17,329 nt of DNA from a virus (lineage: Duplodnaviria > Heunggongvirae > Uroviricota > Caudoviricetes): IMG/VR virus record IMGVR_UViG_2639763139_000009. One strand, 5' to 3'. The notes below the pieces were generated by a model that saw only the letters and a list, made by a program, of their open reading frames with translations, was not told where the DNA came from and did no database searches. The translations under genes were made by a program, and so were the position numbers. Shown here piece after piece: positions 1 through 14,440 of the stretch (positions are counted from its first letter, which is position 1; every line of letters begins with the position of its first letter).

Positions 1-303
1 TTAACGCGTATTTTTCAGCGACTCCTGTGCAAAATACGCTGTTGCTTTTTTTAATATATCTCGCTCAAGGCGAGCTTCATTTAACGCCTTACGCAGTTGC
101 AGAATTTCAGATTCCAGTTCAGCCACCGTGCGGGAACCAGGAGTACCGAGCCCTTTTCTGGCGGCGGTAACCCATTGTCCTAAAGTGCCTTCAGGAAGGG
201 ATAATCGGGAAGCGCCTTCACTGATCGAAAGTTGATTTTCAAGAACCGTTCTGACAGCTTCGGCTTTGAACTCTTTAGAGTAACGTTGGGTTTTTCTGCT
301 CAT
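1..303 (-). CDS. IS600 orfA (transposase N-terminal HTH protein)
   Basis: 100-aa ORF (MSRKTQRYSKEFKAEAVR...) with an HTH and a leucine-zipper-like C-terminus typical of IS3-family OrfA. An A7G slippery motif lies at its 3' end (seen in copy 2 at 13492-13499). Confidence 0.85.
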   Translation of the reverse strand: MSRKTQRYSKEFKAEAVRTVLENQLSISEGASRLSLPEGTLGQWVTAARKGLGTPGSRTVAELESEILQLRKALNEARLERDILKKATAYFAQESLKNTR

Positions 304-367
304 TATTAGCTCCTTCTGATGCCATTCTATTTCAGGAAGGAGTGTCCGTTAAACTCAGGCTACCTCA
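1..367 (-). mobile_element. IS600 (IS3 family), partial copy running off the left window edge; left inverted repeat ends at about 367
   Basis: The ORF at 1..303 (-) is a typical IS3-family orfA. Reverse complement of 354-367 is tgaggtagcctgag, an IS3-type TG... terminus. Window 1..52 is the exact reverse complement of 13492..13543, which lies in the second IS600 copy. Confidence 0.85.
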
Positions 368-830
368 CTTATTCTAAGCAACCGGGTAGCATCATACGGG
401 GCAATTATGGCCGCATTACCATACATGCAACTGTACATAGCTGATTACCTGGCTGACACCATGCATTTGTCAGCAGAGGAGCACGGCGCGTATTTGTTGC
501 TGATGTTCAATTACTGGCAAACAGGAAAGCCAATACCCAAAAACAGGTTGGCAAAAATTGCCCGTCTGACTAACGAGCGATGGGTTGATGTTGAACCATC
601 CTTGCGGGAGTTTTTTTGTGATAACGGCGACGAATGGATGCATCTTCGGATTGAGGAAGATCTGGCATCTGTCAGAGAAAAATTAACCAAAAAATCAGCC
701 GCAGGAAAAGCATCTGTTCAGGCCAGAAGAAGCAGAAAGGAAGCAGATGTTCAAACAAAACAAGAGAGAAATTTAACAGGTGTTCAAACAGATGTTGGAG
801 TGGTGTTCGAACATGATGCTGGATTTGCCC

Positions 831-1736
831 CTATATTTCCAGACATCTGTTATCACTTAACCCATTACAAGCCCGCTGCCGCAGATATTCCCGTGGCGAG
901 CGATAACCCAGCGCACTATGCGGATGCCATTCGTTATAATGCTCGAACGCCTCTGCAAGGTTCTTTGCTGCCGTTAACCCGTCTGGTTTGGGCATGATAC
1001 TGATGTAGTCACGCTTTATCGTTTTCACGAAGCTCTCTGCTATTCCGTTACTCTCCGGACTCCGCACCGCCGTGTTCTTCGGTTCAAGTCCCAACATCCG
1101 GGCGAACTGGCGTGTTTCATTAGCCCGGTAGCATGAACCATTATCCGTCAGCCACTCCACTGGAGACGACGGAAGATCGTTGCCGAAGCGGCGTTCCACC
1201 GCTCCCAGCATGACGTCCTGTACTGTTTCACTGTTGAAGCCGCCGGTAGTCACCGCCCAGTGCAGTGCCTCACGATCACAGCAGTCCAGCGCGAACGTGA
1301 CACGCAGTCTCTCTCCGTTATCACAGCAGAACTCGAACCCGTCAGAGCACCATCGCTGATTGCTTTCTTTCACGGCCACTCTGCCTGTATGTGCCCGTTT
1401 CGATGGCGGTACAGCAGGTTTTCGCTCAAGCAACAGCGCATTCTGGCGCATGAGCCGGTAAACACGTTTGGCATTGATCGCAGGCATACCATCAAGTTCT
1501 GCCTGTCTGCGAAGCAGCGCCCATACCCGACGATAACCATACGTGGGCAGCTCTCCGATAACATGGTGTATACGGAGAAGCACATCCGTATCATCAGTGT
1601 GACGACTGCGGCGGCCATCCATCCAGTCATCGGTTCGTCTGAGAATGACGTGCAACTGCGCACGCGACACCCGGAGACAACGGCTGACTAAGCTTACTCC
1701 CCATCCCCGGGCAATAAGGGCGCGTGCGCTATCCAC
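831..1736 (-). CDS. insD: IS2 OrfB (InsD) transposase, DDE catalytic domain
   Basis: 301-aa [41 protein letters not shown]... recognised as IS2 InsD. Overlaps insC as expected for frameshift-coupled IS3-family transposases. Confidence 0.9.
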
Positions 1737-2059
1737 TTTTTTGCCCGTCCATATTCAACGGCTTCTTTGAGGAGTTCATTTTCCATCGTTTTCTTGCCGA
1801 GCAGGCGCTGGAGTTCTTTAATCTGCTTCATGGCGGCAGCAAGTTCAGAGGCAGGAACAACCTGTTCTCCGGCGGCCACAGCAGTAAGACTTCCTTCCTG
1901 GTATTGCTTACGCCAGAGAAATAACTGGCTGGCTGCTACACCATGTTGCCGGGCAACGAGGGAGACCGTCATCCCCGGTTCAAAGCTCTGCTGAACAATT
2001 GCGATCTTTTCCTGTGTGGTACGCCGTCTGCGTTTCTCCGGCCCTAAGACATCAATCAT
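1694..2059 (-). CDS. insC: IS2 OrfA (InsC)
   Basis: Protein [56 protein letters not shown]... is recognised as IS2 InsC. The ORF-track start at 2104 is an upstream extension. Confidence 0.9.
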
Positions 2060-2897
2060 CTGTTCTCCAATGACTAGTCTAAAAACTAGTATTAAGACTA
2101 TCACTTAAATAAGTGATACTGGTTGTCTGGAGATTCAGGGGGCCAGTCTAGATGCCAACACAAAGGCAACTAATAAAGATACAGATAAAGATCTAAAAAC
2201 AGATCTAACCCATCCCAAACCCTTCCCTTCCGGAAGGGAGTTTCGGGATTTTGTGGCTGGAGTGCTTGAGGGGAGATTATCTGGCGGTACTGCAGCGGAA
2301 TTTTGTAATTCTGCGGTGGTTGCGTTGCAGGCTGCTGGCCTGGATGTCTGTCGTGAGTATCCGGTGCCAGAGCGTGGTGACGGTTGCGGAGGGCGGATTG
2401 ATATCGTCGTGACTGACAGGAACGGTGTCCGGTGTGGGATCGAGCTTGACCGAAATTCTCCGCGACAGAAATCACTGCTCAAAATCGGTGCTGTTGAAAC
2501 CGGGATATGTGTCTTGCGGCGCAGTGATATCGCAAGGCACACCGAGCAGGGAATTCTGGTTATCGGTGGGGCTGTTCGCCAGAAAAAATTTGACCCGTTG
2601 TCAGTTGATCTGCCCGACTGGTTGCCAGAAACACTCTGGCATGAGTGGGTCCAGTTCAGGCAGGCATTGCGAAAACCGATTCGAACGGAGCTGGGCGCTA
2701 ACGGGGCGATACGGGAACTGGAAAAATTCCGTCAGCAGGGTTTTACACCTGAGCAGGTGATTCGACACAGCATCGCCAATGAATACCAGGGTCTGTTCGC
2801 GCCGAAAGGTGTTCGGCCTGAGACGTTGCTCCGACAGGTTAACACCGTCTCGTTGCCGGACAGTGCGATCCCGCCAGGCTTCAGGGGGTAACAGACC

Positions 2898-3644
2898 ATG
2901 AAAAATATTGCGACAGGAGGCGTTCTGGAGCGTATCCGCAGACTGACCCCACCACATGTAACCGCCCCATTCAGAACGGTTGCGGAGTGGCGCGAGTGGC
3001 AACTTGCTGAAGGCCAGAAACGTTGCGAGGAGATCAACCGCCTGAATCGTCAGTTGCGGGTGGAAAAAATCCTGAACCGCTCCGGCATCCAGCCGTTGCA
3101 CCGGAAGTGTTCGTTTGCGAATTACCGGGCGCAGAACGACGGTCAGCGACATGCACTGAGTCAGGCGAAATCCATAGCTGACGAACTGATGACAGGCTGT
3201 ACGAATTTTGTGTTCAGCGGTAAGCCCGGCACCGGAAAAAATCATCTTGCAGCCGCGATTGGCAACCGGCTGATGGCGAAGGGGCGTAGCGTGATTATCG
3301 TCACCGTGTCCGATGTCATGAGCGTGTTGCATGAGAGCTACGACAACGGCAAATCCGGTGAAAAATTTTTACAGGAGCTTTGTGGTGTTGACCTGCTGGT
3401 CCTGGATGAAATTGGCATGCAGCGGGATACGAAAAACGAGCAGGTGGTACTGAACCAGATTGTTGATCGCCGGACGGCATCGTTACGCGGTGTGGGGATG
3501 CTGACAAATATTAACCATGCAGCGATGAATACACTTCTCGGCGAGCGGGTGATGGATCGCATGGTCATGAACGGCGGGCGCTGGGTGAATTTTAACTGGG
3601 AGAGCTGGCGTCCGAATGTTAGCCATTCGAGGGTTGTTAAGTAG
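2898..3644 (+). CDS. DnaC-like replicative helicase loader (phage replication protein, AAA+ ATPase)
   Basis: Walker A GKPGTGKNHLAAAIG and Walker B DLLVLDEIG are present. Overall similarity to E. coli DnaC and Rac YdaV as recalled. RBS agggggtaa lies upstream of the ATG. Confidence 0.85.
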   Translation: MKNIATGGVLERIRRLTPPHVTAPFRTVAEWREWQLAEGQKRCEEINRLNRQLRVEKILNRSGIQPLHRKCSFANYRAQNDGQRHALSQAKSIADELMTGCTNFVFSGKPGTGKNHLAAAIGNRLMAKGRSVIIVTVSDVMSVLHESYDNGKSGEKFLQELCGVDLLVLDEIGMQRDTKNEQVVLNQIVDRRTASLRGVGMLTNINHAAMNTLLGERVMDRMVMNGGRWVNFNWESWRPNVSHSRVVK

Positions 3645-3658
3645 TTTCAGGAGGATTT

Positions 3659-4081
3659 ATGGCGAAACCTTTTACTCCCGAACAGCGGGAAGAACTGAAG
3701 ACGCGAATTGTGGAACTCGTGCATCAGGACGGTCGGGTCACGATTCGGCAGTTGTCCGATGAAACAGGTATCAGTCGTGCGTCTGTCGGTCGCTTATGCA
3801 TAGAACTGGTCGCAAGTGGTGATGTATATAATTCTGGCTACGGCTTATTCCCGTCTGAACAGGCTCGCAAGGACTGGCAAAGCGCCCGCAAAAAACTCTC
3901 GAGAGTAAAGGTGAGGAAACCGGTTGTTGTTGATCCGGACCTTATCTGGTCATTACCTGACGGAGAAATACGCCGCTACGACAGGCGCCTGAATATAATC
4001 TGTCGCGAGTGCCGGAAGAGCGAAGCTATGCAGCGTGTACTGGCTTTCTATCAGGGTAATTTTCAGGAGGCGATACTGTGA
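3659..4081 (+). CDS. hypothetical phage protein with predicted N-terminal helix-turn-helix
   Basis: 140-aa ORF with a strong RBS (aggagg) 6 nt upstream. The VTIRQLSDETGISRASVGR segment is HTH-like. Confidence 0.6.
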   Translation: MAKPFTPEQREELKTRIVELVHQDGRVTIRQLSDETGISRASVGRLCIELVASGDVYNSGYGLFPSEQARKDWQSARKKLSRVKVRKPVVVDPDLIWSLPDGEIRRYDRRLNIICRECRKSEAMQRVLAFYQGNFQEAIL

Positions 4082-4138
4082 ATGAAATTAGCTATCAGGC
4101 TTCAATTACCGCTGGCATTCGCATCAAAGGAGAGGAGC

Positions 4139-4495
4139 ATGGAAATAAAACCAGAAGATGAGTTAAGCAATATCGTTTTATTTCCGATAAAAGAGGATGA
4201 CCCTCGTAATCAGGTTAATTTTCTTTATAAGCCATCGGAAAGACCATATTGCCATCACGCCTCTGTACGGGTTGACGAAAAAGAGCGTCAGGTCCGCTGT
4301 AAAATCTGCGGTGCGGTTGTGGAGCCGTTTGACTGGATGCTCTCTGTGGCAAAAAGAGAAACCAGACTGGCAGATGATGTAAGGCTATTGCGCCAGGAGG
4401 AACAGGAAAGGCGGAGAAATATAGAAAAGCTGATACAGATTGAGCGTAACGCGAAAGCGCGGATACGCAGGGCGACAAAATCCAGAACTGAATAA
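4139..4495 (+). CDS. hypothetical phage protein, Cys/His-rich (possible zinc-binding), basic coiled-coil C-terminus
   Basis: ORF in the track at 4082..4495. A better start is the ATG at 4139, preceded by aaggagaggagc. Contains CHH...CKICG. Confidence 0.5.
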   Translation: MEIKPEDELSNIVLFPIKEDDPRNQVNFLYKPSERPYCHHASVRVDEKERQVRCKICGAVVEPFDWMLSVAKRETRLADDVRLLRQEEQERRRNIEKLIQIERNAKARIRRATKSRTE

Positions 4496-4587
4496 TTAAA
4501 TTTAGCACTGTTAAAAATTTAATCCTTAACCGGAGGGATTTCTGCACCCTCAAATCATCAGGAGACCGCCCGAAAGGGCGGTAATGA

Positions 4588-4806
4588 ATGGTTACATTAT
4601 TTAGAAAAAAATATCCGCGAAAGAGTAGAACAACAGAATTCCTGTTTCTCATTCTGTTTATCGTGTTGATGACACCGATATCCCCGCAAATTTTTGTCTG
4701 GATAATCGGAAAAATAATTGAGCCAGTTATTGAATTGTATAACGACGTGGTATGGGCGTCATTCAACACACTGCACAATAAAATTAATCCGTATAAGGAA
4801 AGCTGA
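4588..4806 (+). CDS. small hydrophobic (membrane) protein, hypothetical
   Basis: 72-aa ORF with a hydrophobic core FLFLILFIVLMTPISPQIFVWIIG. Its stop lies 1 nt before the HNH gene start (tight coupling). No obvious RBS, so the call is weak. Confidence 0.35.
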   Translation: MVTLFRKKYPRKSRTTEFLFLILFIVLMTPISPQIFVWIIGKIIEPVIELYNDVVWASFNTLHNKINPYKES

Positions 4807-4807
4807 T

Positions 4808-5173
4808 ATGGCACTGACGAAAAAACAACGTGCAGAACTGCGCATGAAGTTCGGTGGTCGCTGCGCTTATTGCGGCTGCGAACTTGGCGAAAAGTGGCAT
4901 GCAGACCATGTAAAACCGGTCATTCGTTTTGATGGAAATATGCTTCACCAGGAACGTGACGATATATCCAACATGGTACCAGAATGCCACCCATGCAATC
5001 TGCACAAGCATTGCAGTAGCCTGGAAGATTATCGACGAATTATCAGTGATGGTCGTCGTGAATTCCTTGCGTCCGGGAAAGGCAAAGCGCTGGTTCGTAT
5101 GGGATTGGTTGAAATGAAATCTGACCCGGTTGTGTTCTGGTTTGAAAAATATCAAGAAGGGGCTACGGCATGA
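4808..5173 (+). CDS. HNH endonuclease
   Basis: CAYCGCEL...HADHVKP...CHPCNLHKH motifs. RBS aaggaaa. ATGA overlap with the next gene. Confidence 0.8.
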   Translation: MALTKKQRAELRMKFGGRCAYCGCELGEKWHADHVKPVIRFDGNMLHQERDDISNMVPECHPCNLHKHCSSLEDYRRIISDGRREFLASGKGKALVRMGLVEMKSDPVVFWFEKYQEGATA

Positions 5174-5835
5174 CTACTATTACCAAAGAGCGACTGCAAT
5201 GGCTGGCTAACATTTCTGGCCGCGATGATATTGACGATATAGACGGCGGTGAAATTCGTGAACTGGCGCTTATCGCTCTGGCATCACTGGAAGCAGAGCC
5301 TGTAGCGGAATGCATTGTTGAAGATGGGGGCATGTGTATTGACGGGTTCGGTGAGTATGTGGGTCACTCGCTGCCTGATGGAATGCATGAGCTTTATGCT
5401 GCCCCGCGAATGCGACAACCTGATGGATGGAAAGCCGTAGCTGTAGCGTGGAAGGTGACGTTTACTCAAGTTGACCAGGAATCTAATACGTTCACTGCTA
5501 TATATTTTTACAAAGCGGAAGTTGAGCGTTGGGTACGACTGCATAAAGCATGTGATTTTCGGGCAGATATAACACCGCTTTACGCAGCGCCGGCAGTGCC
5601 GGTTGCAGTAAACGACGACATGGCTTACGCATTCCATCACGCACTGTCAGATTCATCGCTTGGCTCTGATGAAATCGAAGAAATTAAAACCGGTTTGCGT
5701 GCTGCCTTTGCCAACGTCACTATCCAACCAGAGCCGATAGTGCCGGATGAAATCGGGCCAAACGATAGTAATACGTTTGATTATGTTGATGGCTGGAACG
5801 CCTGCCGCGCTGCCATGCTTAAGGGAGATAAATAA
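5170..5835 (+). CDS. hypothetical phage protein
   Basis: 221-aa ORF, translationally coupled with its neighbours on both sides (ATGA and TAATG overlaps). Confidence 0.6.
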   Translation: MTTITKERLQWLANISGRDDIDDIDGGEIRELALIALASLEAEPVAECIVEDGGMCIDGFGEYVGHSLPDGMHELYAAPRMRQPDGWKAVAVAWKVTFTQVDQESNTFTAIYFYKAEVERWVRLHKACDFRADITPLYAAPAVPVAVNDDMAYAFHHALSDSSLGSDEIEEIKTGLRAAFANVTIQPEPIVPDEIGPNDSNTFDYVDGWNACRAAMLKGDK

Positions 5836-6200
5836 TGATTAATCGAACCAAACTGGAGCACATTCTCGAATATGCCAGGCAGCAGAAATGTATTGGGCAA
5901 CTTTGTAAAATTCCACCAGGAGATATGGTTGAAATCGTGGAAATGGCCATGCGTAAGGCTGGCAACTCTCCGGTAACTCTGGCTGGCTGGATAAGCTGTA
6001 GTGATGCAGTTCCTGCTGAATATTGCGATGTGATTCTTCTCGATGATCTCGGGAATGTATTCCCCGGTTCCTGGGATAAGGTTTTTTGCCCCACTCGTGG
6101 CGGGAATAAGATGGCTTTTGTGGACAAAGACGGCGTTGAAGTAGAGAGCTCAACTCACTGGATGCCGCTACCGGAACCACCGCAGGAGGTGAATCAATGA
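5835..6200 (+). CDS. DUF551-like phage protein
   Basis: C-terminal motif GWISCSDAVP...HWMPLPEPP resembles the DUF551 signature (WISV.D.LP...WMPLP.PP) as I recall it. Confidence 0.55.
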   Translation: MINRTKLEHILEYARQQKCIGQLCKIPPGDMVEIVEMAMRKAGNSPVTLAGWISCSDAVPAEYCDVILLDDLGNVFPGSWDKVFCPTRGGNKMAFVDKDGVEVESSTHWMPLPEPPQEVNQ

Positions 6201-6280
6201 CCTGGCCTGAGGCATTCACCACGGTAGGAATTGCGATGGCGGTGGCGCTGGTGGTGTATTCGATTTGCCGTTGGGGTTAA
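6197..6280 (+). CDS. small membrane peptide (27 aa), hypothetical
   Basis: ATG at 6197 overlaps the upstream stop (ATGA). A perfect aggagg sits 7 nt upstream. Encodes MTWPEAFTTVGIAMAVALVVYSICRWG. A terminator follows directly. Below the ORF-track size cutoff. Confidence 0.5.
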   Translation: MTWPEAFTTVGIAMAVALVVYSICRWG

Positions 6281-6285
6281 CAAAC

Positions 6286-6317
6286 AAAAACCCCGGATTG
6301 ATGGTCCGGGGTTTTTG
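6286..6317 (+). terminator. rho-independent terminator
   Basis: ccccgg-attgatggt-ccgggg hairpin followed by ttttt. Confidence 0.8.
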
Positions 6318-6597
6318 AAGGAAACAAAACAGAAACAGCAATTGCCGTTACCTGTTGTTACCATGGCAAGTAAACGTATCTCAGGCGAGCGCATTGCGCC
6401 GTTCTGACGCAGATAAATTAGCCTGGATAGAAGGTGCTGGCAATAAAAAATAGCGTTTTCTTATCGGTATCGGTAAGATTGCTGCGGGTGCTTGAGGCTG
6501 TCTGCCTCGGGCATGCCACTGTAAGGCAGACAGAGAAAAGCCCCAGTTAACATTACGCGTCCTGCAAGACGCTTAACATTAATCTGAGGCCCAATCT

Positions 6598-6810
6598 ATG
6601 TCTCACAAATGTAGGTTAGCCTCTTACGTGCCGAAAGGCAAGGAGAAGCAGGCTATGAAGCAGCAAAAGGCGATGTTAATCGCCCTGATCGTCATCTGTT
6701 TAACCGTCATAGTGACGGCACTGGTAACGAGGAAAGACCTCTGCGAGGTACGAATCCGAACCGGCCAGACGGAGGTCGCTGTCTTCACAGCTTACGAACC
6801 TGAGGAGTAA
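6598..6810 (+). CDS. mok-like in-frame upstream reading frame of the hok locus
   Basis: 70-aa ORF that extends hok by 19 codons at the N-terminus, as in chromosomal mok/hok pairs (recalled as ~69 vs ~50 aa). Confidence 0.45.
   Translation: MSHKCRLASYVPKGKEKQAMKQQKAMLIALIVICLTVIVTALVTRKDLCEVRIRTGQTEVAVFTAYEPEE
6655..6810 (+). CDS. hok: Hok/Gef-family type I toxin (51 aa)
   Basis: MKQQKAMLIALIVICLTVIVTALVTRKDLCEVRIRTGQTEVAVFTAYEPEE is a transmembrane helix plus the conserved Hok C-terminal domain. Recalled as near-identical to HokD/RelF. Confidence 0.9.
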   Translation: MKQQKAMLIALIVICLTVIVTALVTRKDLCEVRIRTGQTEVAVFTAYEPEE

Positions 6811-6877
6811 GAGACCAGGCGGGGGAGAAATCCCTCGCCACCTCTCATGTGTCAGGCATCCTCAACGCACCCGCACT

Positions 6878-6902
6878 AAACCCGCTTCGGCGGGTTTTTT
6901 GT
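6878..6902 (+). terminator. rho-independent terminator at the 3' end of the hok transcript
   Basis: aaacccgc-ttcg-gcgggttt hairpin plus T-tract. Confidence 0.8.
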
Positions 6903-7086
6903 TGCGTGCTGAATACGCAGGGTGAAAAATAACCATATATTTGATTATATACACAACAAAAAATAAAAGTCATTGTACTTGCACATTAAACAATCAAATA
7001 TACGGCGTGAAATAAATATTTATCAGATTAATATTTTTGTCTCTATGTGGATATAACCGTTTGTACTTATAAACCTGGAGGCATCG

Positions 7087-7298
7087 TGGAAAAAATAAAG
7101 AAACTATTTAGTAGCAAATACGCAGTCATACGTCGTGATGACCTGTCAGTTATAGTCGAAATGGATTACTTCCCTGAAACCCCAAAATCAATAATGTATC
7201 GTAATGGTCGAAAGGCAATTTTTTTACCGATGAGGGTAAGTGACATTATGGGAAATGATAAACTGCTGGATGAATTGCGAGTCAGAGCATCCTGTTAG
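7087..7298 (+). CDS. small hypothetical prophage protein (Rem-like by position and size)
   Basis: GTG start 5 nt after ggagg. The ORF-track alternative is 7047..7298 (83 aa). Position after hok parallels the hokD-rem order of the Qin prophage as recalled. The stop codon lies within the IS1 target duplication, so the gene is intact. Confidence 0.45.
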
Positions 7299-7315
7299 TA
7301 GGTAATGACTCCAAC

Positions 7316-7819
7316 TTACTGATAGTGTTTTATGTTCAGATAATGCCCGATGACCTTGTCATGCAGCTCCACCGATTTTGAGAACGACAGTGACTTCCGT
7401 CCCAGCCTTGCCAGATGTTGTCTCAGATTCAGATTATGTCGCTCAATGCGCTGAGTGTAACGCTTGCTGATAACGTGCAGCTTTCCCTTCAGGCGTGATT
7501 CATACAGCGGCCAGCCATCCGTCATCCATACCACGACCTCAAAGGCCGACAGCAGGCTCAGAAGACGCTCCAGTGTGGCCAGAGTGCGTTCACCGAAGAC
7601 GTGCGCCACAACCGTCCTCCGTATCCTGTCATACGCGTAAAACAGCCAGCGCTGACGTGATTTAGCACCGACGTAGCCCCAATGTTCGTCCATTTCAGCG
7701 CAGACAATCACATCACTGCCCGGTTGTATGCGCGAGGTTACCGACTGCGGCCTGAGTTTTTTAAGTGACGTAAAACCGTGTTGAGGCCAACGCCCATAAT
7801 GCGTGCACTGGCGCGACAT
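7316..7819 (-). CDS. insB: IS1 InsB (transposase expressed as InsAB fusion by frameshift)
   Basis: 167-aa ORF overlapping the insA 3' end, typical IS1 organisation. Confidence 0.93.
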
Positions 7820-8013
7820 CCGACGCCATTCATGGCCATATCAATGATTTTCTGGTGCGTACCGGGCTGAGAGGCGGTGTAAGTGAACTGTAGTTGCCAT
7901 GTTTTACGGCAATGAGAGCAGAGATAGCGCTGATGTCCGGCAGTGCTTTTGCCGTTACGCACCACGCCTTCAGTAGCGGAGCAGGAAGGACATCTGATGG
8001 AAATGGAAGCCAC
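7738..8013 (-). CDS. insA: IS1 InsA
   Basis: 91-aa zinc-finger protein [40 protein letters not shown]... Confidence 0.93.
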
Positions 8014-8146
8014 GCAAGCACCTTAAAATCACCATCATACACTAAATCAGTAAGTTGGCAGCATTACCCTGTTAGTATTGGCATTAATTCTGGTATACTA
8101 CATAACGGGCTGAACACCCATTCTACTGCGCCAGCGGAGAACTACG

Positions 8147-8746
8147 ATGGCGCATATACAACTGGTCAAACAAACCTCTTCCGGATTACTTCTCCCGGCG
8201 ACGCCGGAGAGTTGCGATTTTTTGCATCAAATCAAAATAGGTGAGTGGATACACGCAGACTTTAAGCGTGTGCGTAACTACGCATTCCACAAGCGTTTTT
8301 TCAAACTCCTGCAACTGGGATTTGATTACTGGACTCCGGTCGGTGGGGCGATCACGCCTCGCGAACGAAAACTGGTATCAGGCTTCGTTGATTACCTGTG
8401 CGAATCAGTAGGTCGGGAACACACTCCAGCCCTGAGTGATGCCGCAGAGCAATACCTTAATACAGTTGCGACATGCAGAACCCGGGATACGGCATTGCTA
8501 AAGTCGTTTGATGCTTTCCGCGAGTGGGTAACCATTCAGGCCGGATTTTACACCGAGCATATTTATCCTGATGGTAGTCGTGGGCGCAGGGCAAAATCTA
8601 TCGCATTTGCGAACATGGACGAAACCGAGTTTCAGCAGGTTTATAAATCTGTACTGAATGTGCTGTGGAACTGGATCCTGTTCCGTAAATTTTCCTCTCC
8701 GGAGCAAGTCGAAAATGTGGCCGCGCAGCTGCTGGAGTTTGCGTAA
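8147..8746 (+). CDS. nin-region hypothetical protein (possibly YbcN/YdfU-like)
   Basis: 199-aa ORF with RBS ggaga. Immediately upstream of the YbcO-like gene with TAATG coupling. Family assignment is by position only. Confidence 0.55.
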   Translation: MAHIQLVKQTSSGLLLPATPESCDFLHQIKIGEWIHADFKRVRNYAFHKRFFKLLQLGFDYWTPVGGAITPRERKLVSGFVDYLCESVGREHTPALSDAAEQYLNTVATCRTRDTALLKSFDAFREWVTIQAGFYTEHIYPDGSRGRRAKSIAFANMDETEFQQVYKSVLNVLWNWILFRKFSSPEQVENVAAQLLEFA

Positions 8747-9036
8747 TGGTGGATTTACGTAAAGCGGCGCGGGGGCAGATGTGCACCGTCAGAATTCCTG
8801 GCTACTGCAATCACAATCCCGAAACTTCTGTGCTGGCGCATTACAGGCTGGCGGGGACGTGCGGAACAGCGACAAAACCACACGATATGCAGGCAGCGAT
8901 TGCCTGTAGCTCATGCCACGATTTAATCGACGGGCGGGTAAAAACCAGCGATTACACCAAAGAAGAATTACGCCTGATGCATGCAGAAGGTGTTTTTCGC
9001 ACACAAGAAATCTGGAGAAAGGAAGGTTATTTATGA
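8746..9036 (+). CDS. YbcO-like (DUF1364) putative nuclease, Cys-rich
   Basis: MVDLRKAARGQMCTVRIPGYCNHNPETSVLAHYRLAGTCGTATKPHDMQAAIACSSCHD... closely resembles DLP12 YbcO (96 aa) as recalled. Confidence 0.7.
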   Translation: MVDLRKAARGQMCTVRIPGYCNHNPETSVLAHYRLAGTCGTATKPHDMQAAIACSSCHDLIDGRVKTSDYTKEELRLMHAEGVFRTQEIWRKEGYL

Positions 9037-9644
9037 TTTACCCAACAAATACAGGCAAAAGCGGGGAACACCTTCGTCTCACCACGCTGGAAAGTGTCTG
9101 GATTCAGGGAAAACTGCGCATGTGGGGGCGCTGGTCGTATATTGGCGGCGGTAAGACGGGAAATATGTTTAACCAGTTGCTGGCATCCAAAAAATTGACG
9201 AAAACAGCCGTCAATGAAGCCCTGCGCAGGATGAAAAAAGCGGGAATAGAGAAACCTGAGCTGGAAGCGTTTTTGCGAGAGATGATCAATGGCAAGCAAA
9301 AGACCTGGCTGGCGCATTGTACTGATGCAGAGGCGTTATGTATTGATAGAGTCATAAGTGAGGTGCTGGCAGAGCATCCTGGATTGATTAGTGTCCTCCG
9401 GCAACGGTATGAAGGGCGGGGGATGACTAAGCGTAAAATGGCTGAATTGCTGAATGACGCACACCCGAAATGGAGTTTAAGAACCTGTGAAAGACGCATT
9501 GAGCATTGGCTAAAGGTGGCAGAATTTATTTTGCACAAACCAATGGTTATGGCTTTTGGTATAGAGAAAAAAGTTCTTGCATTTTTGCACATAAACTGCT
9601 TCAATTCCGGTAAGCTTCGCAAAGCTGTATCGCGAGGCGAATAG
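9033..9644 (+). CDS. putative late-gene antiterminator (Q-like) by position; family uncertain
   Basis: 204-aa ORF with ATGA overlap onto the ybcO-like stop and RBS aggaagg. Last gene of the nin region, followed by a terminator and the tRNA cluster as in lambdoid Q regions. The ORF-track start at 8913 is an in-frame extension overlapping the previous gene. Confidence 0.4.
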   Translation: MIYPTNTGKSGEHLRLTTLESVWIQGKLRMWGRWSYIGGGKTGNMFNQLLASKKLTKTAVNEALRRMKKAGIEKPELEAFLREMINGKQKTWLAHCTDAEALCIDRVISEVLAEHPGLISVLRQRYEGRGMTKRKMAELLNDAHPKWSLRTCERRIEHWLKVAEFILHKPMVMAFGIEKKVLAFLHINCFNSGKLRKAVSRGE

Positions 9645-9663
9645 CAGACATGGACACTTGAAA

Positions 9664-9689
9664 GAACCCGCTTTATGCGGGTTTTTTTG
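9664..9689 (+). terminator. rho-independent terminator
   Basis: aacccgc-tttat-gcgggtt hairpin plus ttttttt. Confidence 0.75.
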
Positions 9690-9738
9690 TGCCTGAAAAA
9701 TGGCACAGGGCGTTAAACGCGCTGGTGGTCAGATGAGT

Positions 9739-9767
9739 TTGCAGATGTGATGACATATGGTTATTAT
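9739..9767 (+). promoter_or_regulatory. candidate sigma70-type promoter (TTGCAG-N17-TATTAT) directly upstream of the tRNA cluster; could equally be the late promoter
   Basis: Hexamers with 17-bp spacing end about 9 nt before the first tRNA. Confidence 0.3.
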
Positions 9768-9776
9768 TCTGCCTCC

Positions 9777-9853
9777 GGCCCTTTAGCTCAGTTGGTCAGA
9801 GCGAGCGACTCATAATCGCCAGGTCGCTGGTTCAAGTCCAGCAAGGGCCACCA
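9777..9853 (+). tRNA. tRNA with anticodon CAU, ileX/ileZ-like (tRNA-Ile2 if lysidine-modified, otherwise Met)
   Basis: Manual cloverleaf: acceptor ggccctt/aagggcc, D-arm gctc/gagc, anticodon loop ctCATaa, T-loop ttcaagt, encoded CCA. Confidence 0.85.
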
Positions 9854-9854
9854 A

Positions 9855-9931
9855 CCACCACTAGCTCATCCGGATAGAGCATCAACCTTCTAAGTTGACG
9901 GTGCGAGGTTCGAGTCCTCGGTGGTGGGCCA
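9855..9931 (+). tRNA. tRNA-Arg (anticodon UCU)
   Basis: Acceptor ccaccac/gtggtgg, anticodon stem tcaac/gttga with loop ctTCTaa, T-arm cgagg-ttcgagt-cctcg, encoded CCA. Confidence 0.85.
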
Positions 9932-9933
9932 GC

Positions 9934-10009
<76 letters not shown>

Positions 10010-10012
10010 TAT

Positions 10013-10087
<75 letters not shown>

Positions 10088-10201: not shown

Positions 10202-11806
10202 ATGATTCAGCTATCCAGTAGTCACAAACTTCCAGCAGTCTACTATCTCTACCAGCGTAACGGCGTCTACTACTTCCGTCTTAGGGTCAGACAATCAAAC
10301 AATGATAGAATGACCTCAATATCATTACGGACCAAGGATAGACGCACCGCTATGGCTTACTCAAGGCACATAAAGGCAGCACTCAAGGCAATACACGCAG
10401 ACAGACCCAACGCTACCTATGAGGAAATGAGGGAACACCTTAAGGACATCGCTGAGTGTGAACTGTCTATGGGCCGTTCAGATCTCTTTGAGCCTGACAT
10501 GAGGGATATCTACCGGGACCAATACGGAGAACTTGGTGAGAGCCTTACCGATGCTCTGGCTAGTGAGCCGCTAAGCATTGACCAGCATCGTTACATCAAT
10601 GAGGCCCTGAAGGTGCTAAAAGCCTGTATGAGGCGTATCGAAGCGGGAGACAGTCAGCCTCTGATAGATTACGTCGATCTTTTTAATGATATTGATAGGC
10701 AAGATAACCAAGCAGACTCTGTGTCCCTATCTGTTAATGCTCCAGAAGTAAAACCAGAAGTTACGCCTAGCATTACCATAGCGAGCCTCTTTGAGCAATA
10801 CGAAGCGGAGAACTATCAGAACTGGAAGCCTGCAACCTTAAGGGAAAACAAGGCGTCACACGCTGCGTTAATCGAAATATTCGACCATCTGGGTCTCAAT
10901 GCAGACGCTAACAGGGCTGACATGCTTAGGGTCCGTGATGTGCTCCAGCAGTTACCTAGGAACCGTAAGCAGCGCTTCAAGGATGTCCCACTTGCTGACC
11001 TGTTGAGCCGTGAAGATAAGACAGATTGTCTGGATGTCGTTACCATCAACAACAAGTATCTTATTAAGATGGCTGCTGTCTTTAGGTGGGCTGTGCGCAA
11101 TGACTTGATTAAAAAGAACATGACTGAGGGTCTGGAGCTTAAAGTCCCTCAGCGTAAAGCCTCAGGGGCCCGTAACGCCTTCTCTACGGAGCAGGTGGGG
11201 CAACTACTGGTCGCAGCTAAGGCATACTCTCAGAAGACCTCTGGTAAGCCGTATCATTATTATGTTACCGCCTTGGCTGCTATCACTGGGGCGAGACTCA
11301 ATGAAATAGCCCAACTACAGGTCAAAGACGTCAGGACCACTGAGGCGGGAACCGTTTATATTCATATCAATGAAGACGATAGTAGTCTACCCGGTAAGAG
11401 CATCAAGAACGCTCATAGTGACCGCTGTGTGCCTCTGGTCGATGGGGCCTATGGTTTTATATTGGCTGACTTTATGGCGCTTGTAGAGACCCGTAGAGGC
11501 GCTGACGGTGATGACGCTATGGTGTTCGATGGTCTGCGTCTCATGAAGAACGGTTACGGTGAGCAGGTGAGTAAATGGTTTAATCGGACGTTGTTGCCTA
11601 AAGTCCTCGTAGACCGTAGCGGCTTAGCGTTTCACTCGTTTAGACATACAGTTGCGACCCAGTTAAAACAACATGGGGTCGAGTTGGCGTATGCACAGGC
11701 GATCATGGGGCATAGTTCAGGGTCTATTACTTACGACCGTTATGCTAAAGAGGTCGAGGTTGATAGGCTGGTCAATGTGATGGCTGATGTTTATAAGGAG
11801 ACCTAG
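10202..11806 (+). CDS. int: tyrosine site-specific integrase (534 aa, large form with extended central region)
   Basis: N-terminal arm-type motif VYYFRLRV. Catalytic-domain motifs TGARLNEIAQL, HSFRHTVATQL and the C-terminal ITYDRYAKE tyrosine. Starts 115 bp after the tRNA-Gly. Confidence 0.85.
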   Translation: MIQLSSSHKLPAVYYLYQRNGVYYFRLRVRQSNNDRMTSISLRTKDRRTAMAYSRHIKAALKAIHADRPNATYEEMREHLKDIAECELSMGRSDLFEPDMRDIYRDQYGELGESLTDALASEPLSIDQHRYINEALKVLKACMRRIEAGDSQPLIDYVDLFNDIDRQDNQADSVSLSVNAPEVKPEVTPSITIASLFEQYEAENYQNWKPATLRENKASHAALIEIFDHLGLNADANRADMLRVRDVLQQLPRNRKQRFKDVPLADLLSREDKTDCLDVVTINNKYLIKMAAVFRWAVRNDLIKKNMTEGLELKVPQRKASGARNAFSTEQVGQLLVAAKAYSQKTSGKPYHYYVTALAAITGARLNEIAQLQVKDVRTTEAGTVYIHINEDDSSLPGKSIKNAHSDRCVPLVDGAYGFILADFMALVETRRGADGDDAMVFDGLRLMKNGYGEQVSKWFNRTLLPKVLVDRSGLAFHSFRHTVATQLKQHGVELAYAQAIMGHSSGSITYDRYAKEVEVDRLVNVMADVYKET

Positions 11807-11893
11807 AGGAGACCATAGTCTAGGATGACACTTACTACAGACCTGTGTGGTCATGTTTTTGACTCATAGTTTTCTCTACTTGTCAAGGATAAT

Positions 11894-11916
11894 TAATACG
11901 ACTCACTATAGGGAGA
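11894..11916 (+). promoter_or_regulatory. bacteriophage T7 RNA polymerase promoter, exact 23/23 match to the class III consensus TAATACGACTCACTATAGGGAGA (+1 at G 11911)
   Basis: Direct read of the sequence at 11894-11916. Oriented toward the AT-rich tract, the repeats and the Rha-like gene. Confidence 0.8.
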
Positions 11917-12109
11917 AGGGACACAAAAAGTTTTCTCTTCTAGGACAACTAACCGTAACTTATCGCATCCTTTCAGGGGCGGGATGACCAATTACAGACA
12001 CCAAGCGTTCTACTTAAAGTGAATGCTTCCTGTGTGCTCTGGGTCAGTCGATAAGTGAATAGCAATAAGACACAATCATCTTAATTATGGTCTCTAGTCC
12101 CTACAGGGG

Positions 12110-12205
12110 CTTAACTTAAAGTTAACTTAAAGACACAATTAGAGATTAACTTTAAGTATTAAATAAAAGATTTAATTAAAGACCAATTAAAGATTAACTC
12201 TAAGG
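12110..12205. other. AT-rich tract with reiterated TTAAAG / AACTTAAAG motifs, about 200 bp downstream of the T7-type promoter
   Basis: cttaacttaaagttaacttaaagacacaattagagattaactttaagtattaaataaaagatttaattaaagaccaattaaagattaactctaaggg. Composition and motifs recall the region following T7 promoter phi1.1B, i.e. the primary replication origin (from memory, not aligned). Confidence 0.5.
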
Positions 12206-12250
12206 GAATACCTTAAGGGGTGATGATATTTATAATAATCAATCACCAAA

Positions 12251-12350
12251 CCTATAGGTCTTTTCTAGGGTCTCTCTATAGGTCTTCTCTATGGTCCTCT
12301 ATGGTCCTCTATGGTCCTCTATGGTCCTCTATGGTCCTCTATGGCCCTGT
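12251..12350. repeat. tandem direct repeats: 5 perfect copies of atggtcctct (12291-12340) flanked by degenerate copies
   Basis: Seen directly. Upstream degenerate units ctataggtctt(t/c)tct and downstream atggccctgt. Confidence 0.9.
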
Positions 12351-12567
12351 ACGTCATTCTTTAGGATGCCCTGTAGTTTCGTATAGCCTGATGCCTAGAG
12401 AGACCCTCCCAGTAGCTCCGCACAGCTACATCGTCATCATCATAGTATTCAATCTCAAAGTCATTCTGTTTGCATCCTGTTGTCCTGCTGGTCTCCCTTC
12501 GCTTGGGGACTTTGAGTAGGTCAGTGGGGGTGCGACTTCAGGGTGCAAACAAAAAGGAAATCAAGCG

Positions 12568-12723
12568 ATGTCTCAACAACCACAACAACCACAACAAGAA
12601 ATCAGCATCATTAACCTCGACCAGCTTGTGTCCATGACCTCAGTTGAAATTGCTGAGCTGACAGGCAAGGAGCACCGAAATGTCCTTCGTGATATTCGTA
12701 AGATGCTCGAAGAACTTAACGCG
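12568..12723 (+). pseudogene. Rha-like phage regulatory protein gene, N-terminal 52 codons only, truncated by IS1
   Basis: MSQQPQQPQQEISIINLDQLVSMTSVEIAELTGKEHRNVLRDIRKMLEEL resembles the Phage_pRha N-terminal motif (..EIAELTGK.H..V.RDIR..) as recalled. The reading frame runs into the IS1 end at 12724. RBS aaggaaa. Confidence 0.5.
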
Positions 12724-12778
12724 GGTAATGCTGCCAACTTACTGATTTAGTGTATGATGGTGATTTTAAGGTGCTTGC

Positions 12779-13054
12779 GTGGCTTCCATTTCCATCAGAT
12801 GTCCTTCCTGCTCCGCTACTGAAGGCGTGGTGCGTAACGGCAAAAGCACTGCCGGACATCAGCGCTATCTCTGCTCTCATTGCCGTAAAACATGGCAACT
12901 ACAGTTCACTTACACCGCCTCTCAGCCCGGTACGCACCAGAAAATCATTGATATGGCCATGAATGGCGTCGGATGTCGCGCCAGTGCACGCATTATGGGC
13001 GTTGGCCTCAACACGGTTTTACGTCACTTAAAAAACTCAGGCCGCAGTCGGTAA
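12779..13054 (+). CDS. insA: IS1 InsA
   Basis: Protein identical to the InsA of the first IS1 copy. Confidence 0.93.
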
Positions 13055-13476
13055 CCTCGCGCATACAACCGGGCAGTGATGTGATTGTCTGCGCTGAAAT
13101 GGACGAACATTGGGGCTACGTCGGTGCTAAATCACGTCAGCGCTGGCTGTTTTACGCGTATGACAGGATACGGAGGACGGTTGTGGCGCACGTCTTCGGT
13201 GAACGCACTCTGGCCACACTGGAGCGTCTTCTGAGCCTGCTGTCGGCCTTTGAGGTCGTGGTATGGATGACGGATGGCTGGCCGCTGTATGAATCACGCC
13301 TGAAGGGAAAGCTGCACGTTATCAGCAAGCGTTACACTCAGCGCATTGAGCGACATAATCTGAATCTGAGACAACATCTGGCAAGGCTGGGACGGAAGTC
13401 ACTGTCGTTCTCAAAATCGGTGGAGCTGCATGACAAGGTCATCGGGCATTATCTGAACATAAAACACTATCAGTAA
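12973..13476 (+). CDS. insB: IS1 InsB
   Basis: Protein identical to the InsB of the first IS1 copy. Confidence 0.93.
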
Positions 13477-13491
13477 GTTGGAGTCATTACC

Positions 13492-14440
13492 AAAAAAAGC
13501 AACAGCGTATTTTGCACAGGAGTCGCTGAAAAATACGCGTTAATCGAACAATGGCGACAACAATTTCCCATTGAAGCGATGTGTCAGGTATTTGGTGTAT
13601 CCAGGAGCGGTTATTACAACTGGGTACAGCATGAACCCTCAGACAGAAAACAAAGTGATGAGCGGCTAAAACTGGAGATTAAGGTGGCACATATCCGCAC
13701 TCGCGAAACATATGGAACCCGGCGGCTCCAGACGGAGCTGGCAGAGAATGGCATCATCGTTGGTCGTGACCGACTGGCACGTCTTCGTAAGGAGCTGAGG
13801 CTACGCTGTAAGCAGAAACGCAAGTTCAGAGCGACTACGAACCCGAACCACAATCTGCCAGTTGCGCCAAATCTGCTGAACCAGACGTTCGCTCCTACAG
13901 CACCAAATCAGGTCTGGGTGGCGGACCTGACGTATGTTGCCACACAGGAGGGATGGTTGTACCTCGCTGGCATCAAAGATGTTTATACGTGCGAAATTGT
14001 CGGCTACGCCATGGGAGAGCGCATGACAAAAGAGCTGACAGGTAAAGCCCTGTTTATGGCGCTCAGGAGCCAGCGCCCACCTGCCGGGCTAATCCACCAC
14101 TCTGATCGAGGTTCACAGTACTGCGCATACGATTACCGGGTCATACAGGAGCAGTCTGGTCTGAAAACATCAATGTCGCGTAAAGGTAACTGTTACGACA
14201 ACGCTCCGATGGAAAGCTTCTGGGGAACGCTGAAAAATGAGAGCCTGAGCCACTATCGTTTTAATAACCGGGATGAAGCCATCTCAGTAATACGGGAATA
14301 CATTGAGATTTTCTACAATCGTCAGCGTCGTCACTCTCGTCTGGGGAATATCTCCCCGGCAGCCTTCAGGGAAAAATATCATCAGATGGCTGCTTAAAAA
14401 AAGAACAAATGGTAGTGTCCGCTATTGCCAGTACACCTCA
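13492..14440 (+). mobile_element. IS600, 5'-truncated copy (lacks the left IR and most of orfA), right IR ending ...gtacacctca at 14440
   Basis: 13492..13543 equals the reverse complement of window 1..52. orfB follows. The terminus resembles the IS600 left IR in inverted form (tgaggt...cggacact). Confidence 0.9.
13579..14397 (+). CDS. IS600 OrfB transposase (DDE integrase core)
   Basis: 272-aa ORF with the IS3-family DDE region (WVADLTY...HSDRGSQY...ESFWGTLKNE). Normally expressed as an OrfAB fusion by -1 frameshift at the A7G motif at 13492-13499. Confidence 0.9.
   Translation: MCQVFGVSRSGYYNWVQHEPSDRKQSDERLKLEIKVAHIRTRETYGTRRLQTELAENGIIVGRDRLARLRKELRLRCKQKRKFRATTNPNHNLPVAPNLLNQTFAPTAPNQVWVADLTYVATQEGWLYLAGIKDVYTCEIVGYAMGERMTKELTGKALFMALRSQRPPAGLIHHSDRGSQYCAYDYRVIQEQSGLKTSMSRKGNCYDNAPMESFWGTLKNESLSHYRFNNRDEAISVIREYIEIFYNRQRRHSRLGNISPAAFREKYHQMAA

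Follow-up and report, generated by a model that had tools for sequence, protein, structure and literature searches.

Genetic islands with T7-like promoters are, by its title, the subject of the 2006 paper by Chen and Schneider (Nucleic Acids Res 34:1133-1147, doi 10.1093/nar/gkj511). The DNA analyzed here, IMG/VR record IMGVR_UViG_2639763139_000009 (17,329 nucleotides, hereafter the window), is Shigella flexneri chromosomal DNA and carries an exact T7 promoter next to the gene of a tyrosine integrase. The 2006 survey, done by computer analysis, reportedly found 12 islands among nine enteropathogens, with sizes of 4-13 kb. These are said to have 2-3 tandem promoters, an upstream tyrosine integrase, direct repeats of 17-24 bases and no polymerase gene, with a few phage-related genes downstream among which no structural genes were recognized, and a role as satellites of T7-like phages was reportedly proposed for them. 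S. flexneri genomes were probably among those scanned. This kind of island is already known, and the satellite idea put forward in a preliminary description of the window is not new; the capsid fold, the concatemer-junction mimic, the circular contig, the link to the defense gene RAZR and the wider host range described below may be additions to the 2006 work.

Other described systems offer further points of comparison. Capsid-forming phage-inducible chromosomal islands (cf-PICIs, e.g. EcCI2) encode a complete head and packaging module, with portal, protease, connectors and small terminase, and take their tails from temperate helpers, whereas the islands related to the window encode a predicted capsid protein alone (perhaps with a DUF6971 protein) and carry phage RNA polymerase promoters and a T7-type junction signal. 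The phage-inducible chromosomal island-like element (PLE) of Vibrio cholerae is described as a parasite of the virulent phage ICP1 that is induced only by infection, and phage-inducible chromosomal minimalist islands (PICMIs) are tiny and leave almost all functions to their helper. Neither is related to the islands in sequence or gene content, and induction of the islands would proceed through helper-polymerase promoters, not a protein trigger. Finally, Chung and Hinkle are said to have reported in 1990 that the T7 origin and the concatemer junction form the minimal cis set for T7 replication and packaging of plasmids. The islands hold natural look-alikes of promoter, AT-rich tract and junction, with similarity at the level of motifs only.

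Compared with the islands of the 2006 survey, the window copy shows the promoter, the upstream same-strand integrase, a phage-related gene and no polymerase gene, and it lacks a second attachment (att) repeat. We consider it probable that the window promoter belongs to an IS1-truncated copy, in S. flexneri, of a T7-like-promoter island from a family of T7-group phage satellites. The broader reading, towards which we lean with less assurance, is that the members of this family are capsid-encoding satellites of virulent T7-group (Autographiviridae) phages, the first such in enterobacteria, combining promoters for the phage polymerase, a T7-type origin, a junction mimic and an HK97 capsid of their own, often with RAZR sensing the helper portal. 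The promoter and the gene preceding it lie as follows.

10202-11806, plus strand: intact island integrase, a 534-amino acid (aa) tyrosine recombinase (Pfam PF00589, Phage_integrase, E=4e-18)
11819-11945, plus strand: one copy of a promoter unit of ~120 bp, which aligns with three successive units of L027 (L001-L042 are our locus or contig labels for relatives of the window island)
11894-11916, plus strand: exact T7 class III promoter, reading rightwards, with the predicted +1 at G11911, the G of ...TATAGGGAGA

The sequence at 11894-11916 on the plus strand, TAATACGACTCACTATAGGGAGA, matches the T7 class III promoter at 23/23 positions with 0 mismatches, as the preliminary description had stated, and with its flanks it is identical to T7 phi13, phi6.5, phi10 and phiOR over 26-27 nt. 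No second match occurs in the window, even allowing up to 3 mismatches, and dinucleotide shuffles of the window produced matches in 0/200 cases. The earlier reading of the layout also holds: the promoter starts 88 nt past the integrase stop (11806), and the AT-rich tract, the 10-bp repeats and the Rha-like gene all follow 3' of it on the same strand. The T7-type promoter unit is present in 58/5426 complete E. coli genomes, in every case on the chromosome and on 0 plasmids. The window and L023 each have a single unit, and the otherwise near-identical Shigella copies L024 and L027 have a tandem array of three; this difference is either copy-number variation or assembly collapse.

Relatives of the island are widespread. 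Of 5426 complete E. coli genomes, 210 contain homologues of the 761-bp non-coding segment, every one of them on the chromosome at glyU, adjoining the ETT2 secretion island. Another 17 Enterobacterales species have integrase orthologues (65-87% identity), their hosts including Klebsiella, Enterobacter, Citrobacter, Kluyvera, Proteus, Pectobacterium, Lonsdalea, Serratia and Buttiauxella. The att direct repeats are formed by the 3' end of tRNA-Gly and measure 23 bp in most intact relatives (18-27 bp). Between them lie elements of 4.2 kb (L001, L002), 4.45 kb (L005), 5.5 kb (L016) and 6.2-6.45 kb (L006, L009, L017), and L003 reaches 7.3 kb, including an IS5 element. The comparisons proposed in the preliminary description gave two results: intact att-bounded islands with conserved promoters exist in E. 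coli chromosomes, and BLAST similarity of the non-coding DNA to phage genomes is confined to the promoter. On the latter ground, extended DNA homology to phages was rejected.

The arrangement of integrase followed by promoters on the same strand is found in 21/21 loci. Nearly every locus has 1-4 promoters of the form N9-CACTATAGGGAGA, on the integrase strand and within ~1 kb 3' of the integrase, and the -17 to -8 specificity region differs from locus to locus. The T7 type is found in E. coli and Shigella, and AACTAT (K1F-like), AACCCT (T3-like) and AACCCA types elsewhere. The island of Klebsiella pneumoniae ATCC 13883 (L006, 7036-7615) has four promoters, two of them exact K11-type, one exact T7-type and one a AATTAGGTAG variant, a mix that suggests a response to several helper phages. 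The three variant promoter types tested all have counterparts among the multi-copy promoters of real phages. Among the 173 records matched by the K11 type, 161 were Klebsiella phages, with ~10 sites per genome; the AACTAT type matches Kayfunavirus and other enterobacterial T7-like phages; and the Proteus cibi promoters (L017, 8852-8877 and 9480-9505) share 27 identical nt with the Vibrio phages N4 and ICP3. The phage collection searched included no Proteus phage with an L017-type promoter. Matching between islands and phages at the genus level therefore appears good, if imperfect, since the Proteus island type is a Vibrio phage promoter. No att-bounded island has an open reading frame (ORF) of polymerase size, and the window, whose largest ORF is the 534-aa integrase, has no phage RNA polymerase gene. 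Within L006 (4500-11200), 2 sigma-70-like sites were found, compared with 6.5 +/- 2.5 in shuffles, a scarcity that is consistent with silence of the island without a phage polymerase.

An alignment of six islands revealed a fixed order downstream of the integrase, namely promoter, a nearly invariant block of ~110 bp, AT-rich tract, inverted repeat and short tandem repeats. The window retains these elements at the following positions.

11950-12060, plus strand: nearly invariant block with the hairpin CATCC-N11-GGATG (six-island alignment)
12100-12215, plus strand: AT-rich tract of ACTTAAAG-type units, a putative replication-origin element (repeats from Tandem Repeats Finder, TRF)
12219-12247: inverted repeat GGTGATGAT...ATCAATCACC at the end of the AT-rich tract, read from the sequence and conserved in relatives by alignment
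12252-12348, plus strand: short tandem repeats, including related 12-bp units before the TCTATGGTCC array (TRF)
12454-12567, plus strand: leader and ribosome-binding region of the Rha gene, ~85% identical to L004, an island with a K1F-type promoter

The AT-rich tract lies ~190 bp downstream of the promoter, and GC content falls to ~24% over 12100-12249. We counted 8-mers shared with the T7 genome for window positions 11917-12567, with promoters masked. Sharing peaked at the T7 primary origin (5851-6100; 24 vs a genome mean of 2.4, standard deviation 2.7) and in the phiOL left-end region (251-500). The T7 primary origin consists of phi1.1A/B and an AT-rich tract, and phiOL can act as a secondary origin. 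In local alignment, the AT-rich tract scored 37 against T7 5929-5995, compared with 19 +/- 2.8 and a maximum of 29 for dinucleotide shuffles. The similarity recurs in the Klebsiella island, within T7/K11-promoter islands only, and in these islands the tract is a likely candidate for a T7-type origin, judging from its sequence.

The tandem repeats that follow (TCTATGGTCC, 8.1 copies at 12264-12348 by TRF) vary in copy number and unit sequence among island variants, those of L003 being different, and are possibly binding sites for the DNA-binding protein encoded by the first gene. Arrays of T7 primase sites were rejected as an explanation: the repeats do contain TGGTC or GGGTC, but pooled counts were 129 on the plus strand vs 181 on the minus strand, and the integrase-gene control was similar. 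The 110-bp block at 11950-12060 is near-identical in Shigella/E. coli and Klebsiella islands while its flanks diverge. It gave a weak folding signal (RNA fold z = -2.3), and an Rfam search of the island non-coding DNA including this block returned no match; on these two grounds, a structured-RNA reading of the non-coding DNA was rejected.

A second point of resemblance to T7 is found at the opposite end of the islands. The motif AAAAAT(C/G)TGAG - 6 nt - AT(C/G)T(A/C)A(T/C)A - ~22 nt - CCCCC(A/G)T is common to islands, to T7 (39754-39810) and to the right end of K11, and in both phages it sits exactly at the start of the terminal repeat. Most intact islands examined contain it (AAAAATCTGAG...ATCT), always on the plus strand, 180-280 bp past the capsid gene and ~200-255 bp before attR, the right att site. 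The 11-mer of the motif has no other occurrence in the 1.07 Mb of strand-bases examined. The minimal T7-promoter islands match best, with 33/41 identical positions across the T7 terminal-repeat start in L001 (14114-14154). When loci of 22-25 kb were aligned locally to the T7 junction, the island motif site ranked first, scoring 47, 47 and 37, where the background was 18.7 +/- 4-5 and the runner-up reached 25-27. The best score in the window was 22, equal to background, which is consistent with its missing right end. A terminal repeat homologous to that of T7 was not found in the islands, and the class II pause signal ATCTGTT is absent from the region after the promoters. Over whole elements, this signal is found once, inside the integrase gene, ~0.9 kb past the junction mimic, or is absent; in L035 (4959-5334), it lies 368 nt past the junction-like motif vs 337 nt in T7.

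We then clustered the ORFs of 21 loci. The integrase is present in 21/21, a DUF4145 gene overlapping the integrase stop in 11/21, and a ~65-aa protein, DUF6971 and a 300-400-aa protein in 10 of 21 each. The layout runs from the integrase through the DUF4145 gene, where present (11/21), and the promoter array with ~1 kb of non-coding DNA to a first gene and later genes, nearly all of them pointing the same way as the promoters. The first gene varies and encodes a Rha, KilA-N, Bro-N or Ant-like DNA-binding protein, and in L006 a strong terminator follows the last gene, that of the capsid protein. Each element has 3-6 genes in all, with at most one structural gene in 4.2-6.5 kb.

The 300-400-aa core protein showed no sequence match in Pfam, PHROGs or the PDB. 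Its AlphaFold model, built with 20 homologues (predicted local distance difference test score, pLDDT, 69; predicted template modeling score, pTM, 0.68), matches 130 BFVD entries at E<=1e-3, almost all of them major capsid or head proteins. We conclude with moderate confidence that intact islands encode an HK97-fold capsid protein. DUF6971, encoded just 5' of the capsid gene, has a charged, helical C-terminal half and an uncharacterized crystal structure (5EUR), and a role as scaffold protein would be a guess. A comparison of DUF6971 with T7 gp9 by hhalign gave a probability of <1%, and the capsid protein and DUF6971 were rejected as relatives of gp10 and gp9 at this level. Searches of Pfam, PHROGs, PADLOC and PDB sequences were blank for the capsid family and for most of the cargo tested, no structural or packaging family (Pfam, PHROGs) was found among the other ORFs tested beside the capsid protein, and PADLOC matched none of the cargo proteins tested except RAZR. 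The minimal islands L001, L002 and L005 (4.2-4.45 kb) lack DUF6971 and the capsid gene, keep the promoters, the AT-rich tract and both att sites, and carry the best mimic of the T7 junction. For their packaging, these forms may instead rely on helper capsids.

A full-length PADLOC match (E=1e-102) identifies the DUF4145 gene as PD-T7-4. PD-T7-4, since renamed RAZR, is an RNase that acts by abortive infection and that the T7/T3 portal activates (PMC13017515), its activity against T7 and T3 is published (PMC13017515, PMC9519451), and Vassallo et al. described that it 'often overlaps an integrase gene' (PMC9519451). Native T7 promoters are mentioned in neither paper, and PMC13017515 is also silent on an integrase, an island or a satellite. 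The published system (zinc finger plus DUF4145/HEPN) and the islands share the integrase-overlapping position, in 11/21 loci. Within the islands, RAZR is cargo 5' of the phage promoters and not a promoter-driven module. It is absent from the window copy, which has no DUF4145/RAZR ORF between the integrase stop at 11806 and the promoter.

A circular or tandem form of the element was found in a metagenome. The European Nucleotide Archive (ENA) contig L035 measures 6,628 bp with a terminal overlap of 141 bp, equal to the assembler k-mer length, which gives a unit of ~6.5 kb; it has no tRNA and no chromosomal flank. Its gene order (Rha, 60-aa protein, DUF6971, capsid, integrase) is that of attP, and two more assemblies hold 100% identical, equally permuted contigs (the set being ERZ27247387, ERZ23216721 and ERZ23140466). 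The Logan contigs L032 and L034 were rejected as circular forms and represent integrated copies, since their ends fall at the att repeats, with tRNA bases still attached. L038-L042 were likewise rejected as free forms, being integrated copies or fragments.

These observations can be arranged into a candidate mechanism. The island would lie silent in the uninfected cell. Once a T7-like phage has entered and produced its RNA polymerase, this enzyme would transcribe the operon and, at the promoter and AT-rich tract, prime replication by the phage replisome, as happens at the T7 primary origin. The excised and replicated element would be cut at the junction-like site by the phage terminase and packaged; its destination would be a small capsid assembled from the element's own protein or, in the case of the minimal 4.2-kb forms, a capsid of the helper. 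It would then spread as a satellite and probably interfere with its helper, with RAZR adding an abortive-infection defense. As packaging of the T7 type makes its cuts at specific junctions, a unit of 6.5 kb would underfill a 40-kb capsid, so there may have been selection for a separate small capsid. As far as sequence and predicted structure can tell, four needs of a satellite would be covered: induction, an origin, a terminase site and, in the 6-kb forms, a capsid protein of its own. The proposal of the preliminary description, a module triggered by T7 polymerase and serving either as a defense or as a satellite, is likewise supported by comparison with relatives, namely by the conserved promoters, the origin-like tract, the predicted capsid, the junction mimic and RAZR.

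Several observations weigh against the satellite reading. We found no experimental test of island transcription, excision, replication or transduction in the searchable literature. No excisionase, replication protein, portal or terminase is recognizable in any island, so that a helper function has to be assumed for every step of the mechanism. The origin similarity is short and composition-biased, and no peak was seen in L009 and L016, which have other promoter types. ATCTGTT is not consistently placed in the islands. In the capsid model, residues 150-375 mostly score >80 and the N-terminal ~150 residues are poor, and the protein has no detectable sequence relation to T7 gp10 (hhalign probability <1%). 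A tandem chromosomal duplication could give the same contig as L035, and the circular or tandem contigs all belong to one lineage, which lacks the tRNA-Gly att core. Finally, the IMG/VR matches are contigs named by IMG genome identifiers in prophage or chromosomal context, and for this reason they are not evidence of packaging in virions.

Among the alternatives, the one that survives best is a defense island that is triggered by phage RNA polymerase and is not transduced, with mobility from the integrase only. Its promoters would sense infection and turn on proteins that are toxic to or interfere with the phage or cell, or the origin-like DNA would act as a decoy for the replisome. About half of the islands carry RAZR/PD-T7-4, with its proven abortive infection against T7 and T3, the first genes are regulators of the Ant/Rha/KilA-N type, the sparse sigma-70-like sites fit silence until infection, and direct packaging evidence is absent. 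However, RAZR lies 5' of the promoters and therefore outside the control of the phage polymerase, no cargo tested other than RAZR has a PADLOC match, and the conserved genes that the promoters do drive include the HK97-fold capsid protein. The T7/K11 junction mimic at a fixed distance from attR and the circular or tandem unit-length form also argue against an island restricted to defense, which we consider unlikely. Satellite and defense roles are compatible and not mutually exclusive.

The islands could also be degraded remnants of an integrated temperate T7-like phage, with promoter, origin and junction as leftovers. The promoter, the AT-rich tract and the junction-like motif are all T7-group features, and T7-like phages with an integrase exist in other bacterial groups. 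Against this, 0 of >25 loci contain a gene for an RNA polymerase, DNA polymerase, primase-helicase, portal, tail or terminase, and the same compact, att-bounded gene order of 4.2-6.5 kb is kept across many genera. The capsid protein and DUF6971 have no sequence relation to T7 gp10 and gp9, and BLAST similarity to phage genomes is restricted to the promoter. We therefore regard this origin as very improbable. Contamination by a laboratory construct (a pET-type vector or DE3 DNA) or a chance match can be dismissed almost entirely: the 23-mer is identical to the expression-vector promoter, but 0/200 shuffles match, no vector, lac operator or gene-10 leader sequence is adjacent, sister islands carry other phage promoter types at the same position, and the flanks, far from pointing to the construct origin that the preliminary description had named as its refutation, are natural island DNA conserved in 58-210 complete E. 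coli chromosomes and in Shigella, never on plasmids, a context that rules out both.

The classic example of a virulent phage, T7 also underlies the most widely used expression system, and no satellite of it is known to have been characterized experimentally. If the satellite reading is correct, the signal that induces the element would be the RNA polymerase of the helper itself. This would explain why perfect phage promoters are found in ~1-4% of E. coli and in many other Enterobacterales, and would give the RAZR defense gene its native mobile setting. Interference and the transfer of island DNA could then affect therapy with T7-like phages, and natural sets of orthogonal promoters would become available. 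The hypothesis is directly testable, as public strains such as K. pneumoniae ATCC 13883 carry intact islands. Others with intact islands are E. coli 14EC001 and EcE.CRE.COL, of the 4.2-kb T7-promoter type, and E. coli 21AR0133, of the capsid-bearing type.

The remaining parts of the window describe how the island was acquired and how it decayed.

9777-10087: tRNA cluster of Met, Arg-UCU, Thr-UGU and Gly-UCC, directly after the Q-like antiterminator gene (ARAGORN)
10013-10087, plus strand: tRNA-Gly(UCC), last of the cluster and integration target (attL; ARAGORN)
12568-12722, plus strand: 5' remnant, ~52 codons, of the Rha-family first gene (Pfam PF09669, E=6e-10, profile positions 1-31 of 91)
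12723-13491, plus strand: IS1, which truncates the island (InsA and IS1 transposase domains; another IS1 copy matches it at 100% identity)
13492-14440, plus strand: partial IS3-family (IS600-like) element (rve/HTH_21 domains; matches IS600 in L004)

Positions 1-10087 belong to a Rac-like lambdoid prophage that carries replication genes, the gene of a Q-like antiterminator and the tRNA cluster, and related prophages match the window only as far as 10087. BLAST homology to the glyU-borne E. coli islands starts at ~10044, within the 3' part of the tRNA-Gly gene, and the island is therefore integrated into a prophage-borne tRNA-Gly. With this gene used as the attachment site, one mobile element is nested in another. 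The integrase is an exact match to 'MULTISPECIES: site-specific integrase [Shigella]', found in 193 contigs, mostly of S. flexneri and including a 4.63-Mb chromosome. Its N-terminus has a weak DUF6538 match (E=1e-5, 25.1 bits), just under the 27-bit cut-off.

The truncation by IS1 noted in the preliminary description, and the decay that it suggested, agree with our results. Rha is cut after 12722, and the remainder of the island, comprising the small ORFs, DUF6971, the capsid gene, the junction-like signal and attR, is gone from the window; unrelated prophage tail-fiber genes lie 3' of the partial IS3-family element. The tRNA-side att core is present and a search of the window for a second core repeat found none, because the IS1 and IS3-family insertions removed the right end. 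Of the island, the window keeps just the integrase, a single promoter unit, the origin-like tract and the 52 codons of Rha. Without attR, the copy is unable to excise. It is an IS1-truncated, immobile, dead remnant, and as such a decayed member of the island family and not a non-member. A T7-type polymerase acting on it would at most give a dead-end transcript, and its practical consequence is small because it is truncated.

Full-length homologues of the interrupted gene product, of 226-242 aa, are found in L003, L004, L011 and L026. Near the N-terminus of the window's Rha remnant (12574-12597) lies a CAACAACCA repeat, encoding QQPQQPQQ, which is absent from the L004 homologue. L004 (1276-8441) and L040 (1-4962) also contain a second small element beside the T7-promoter island, with a lambda gpE-type capsid gene, an ORF of ~615 aa and a second integrase, which is encoded on the opposite strand and in L040 matches DUF6538 weakly. 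This neighbor may represent a different satellite family in the same glyU hotspot.

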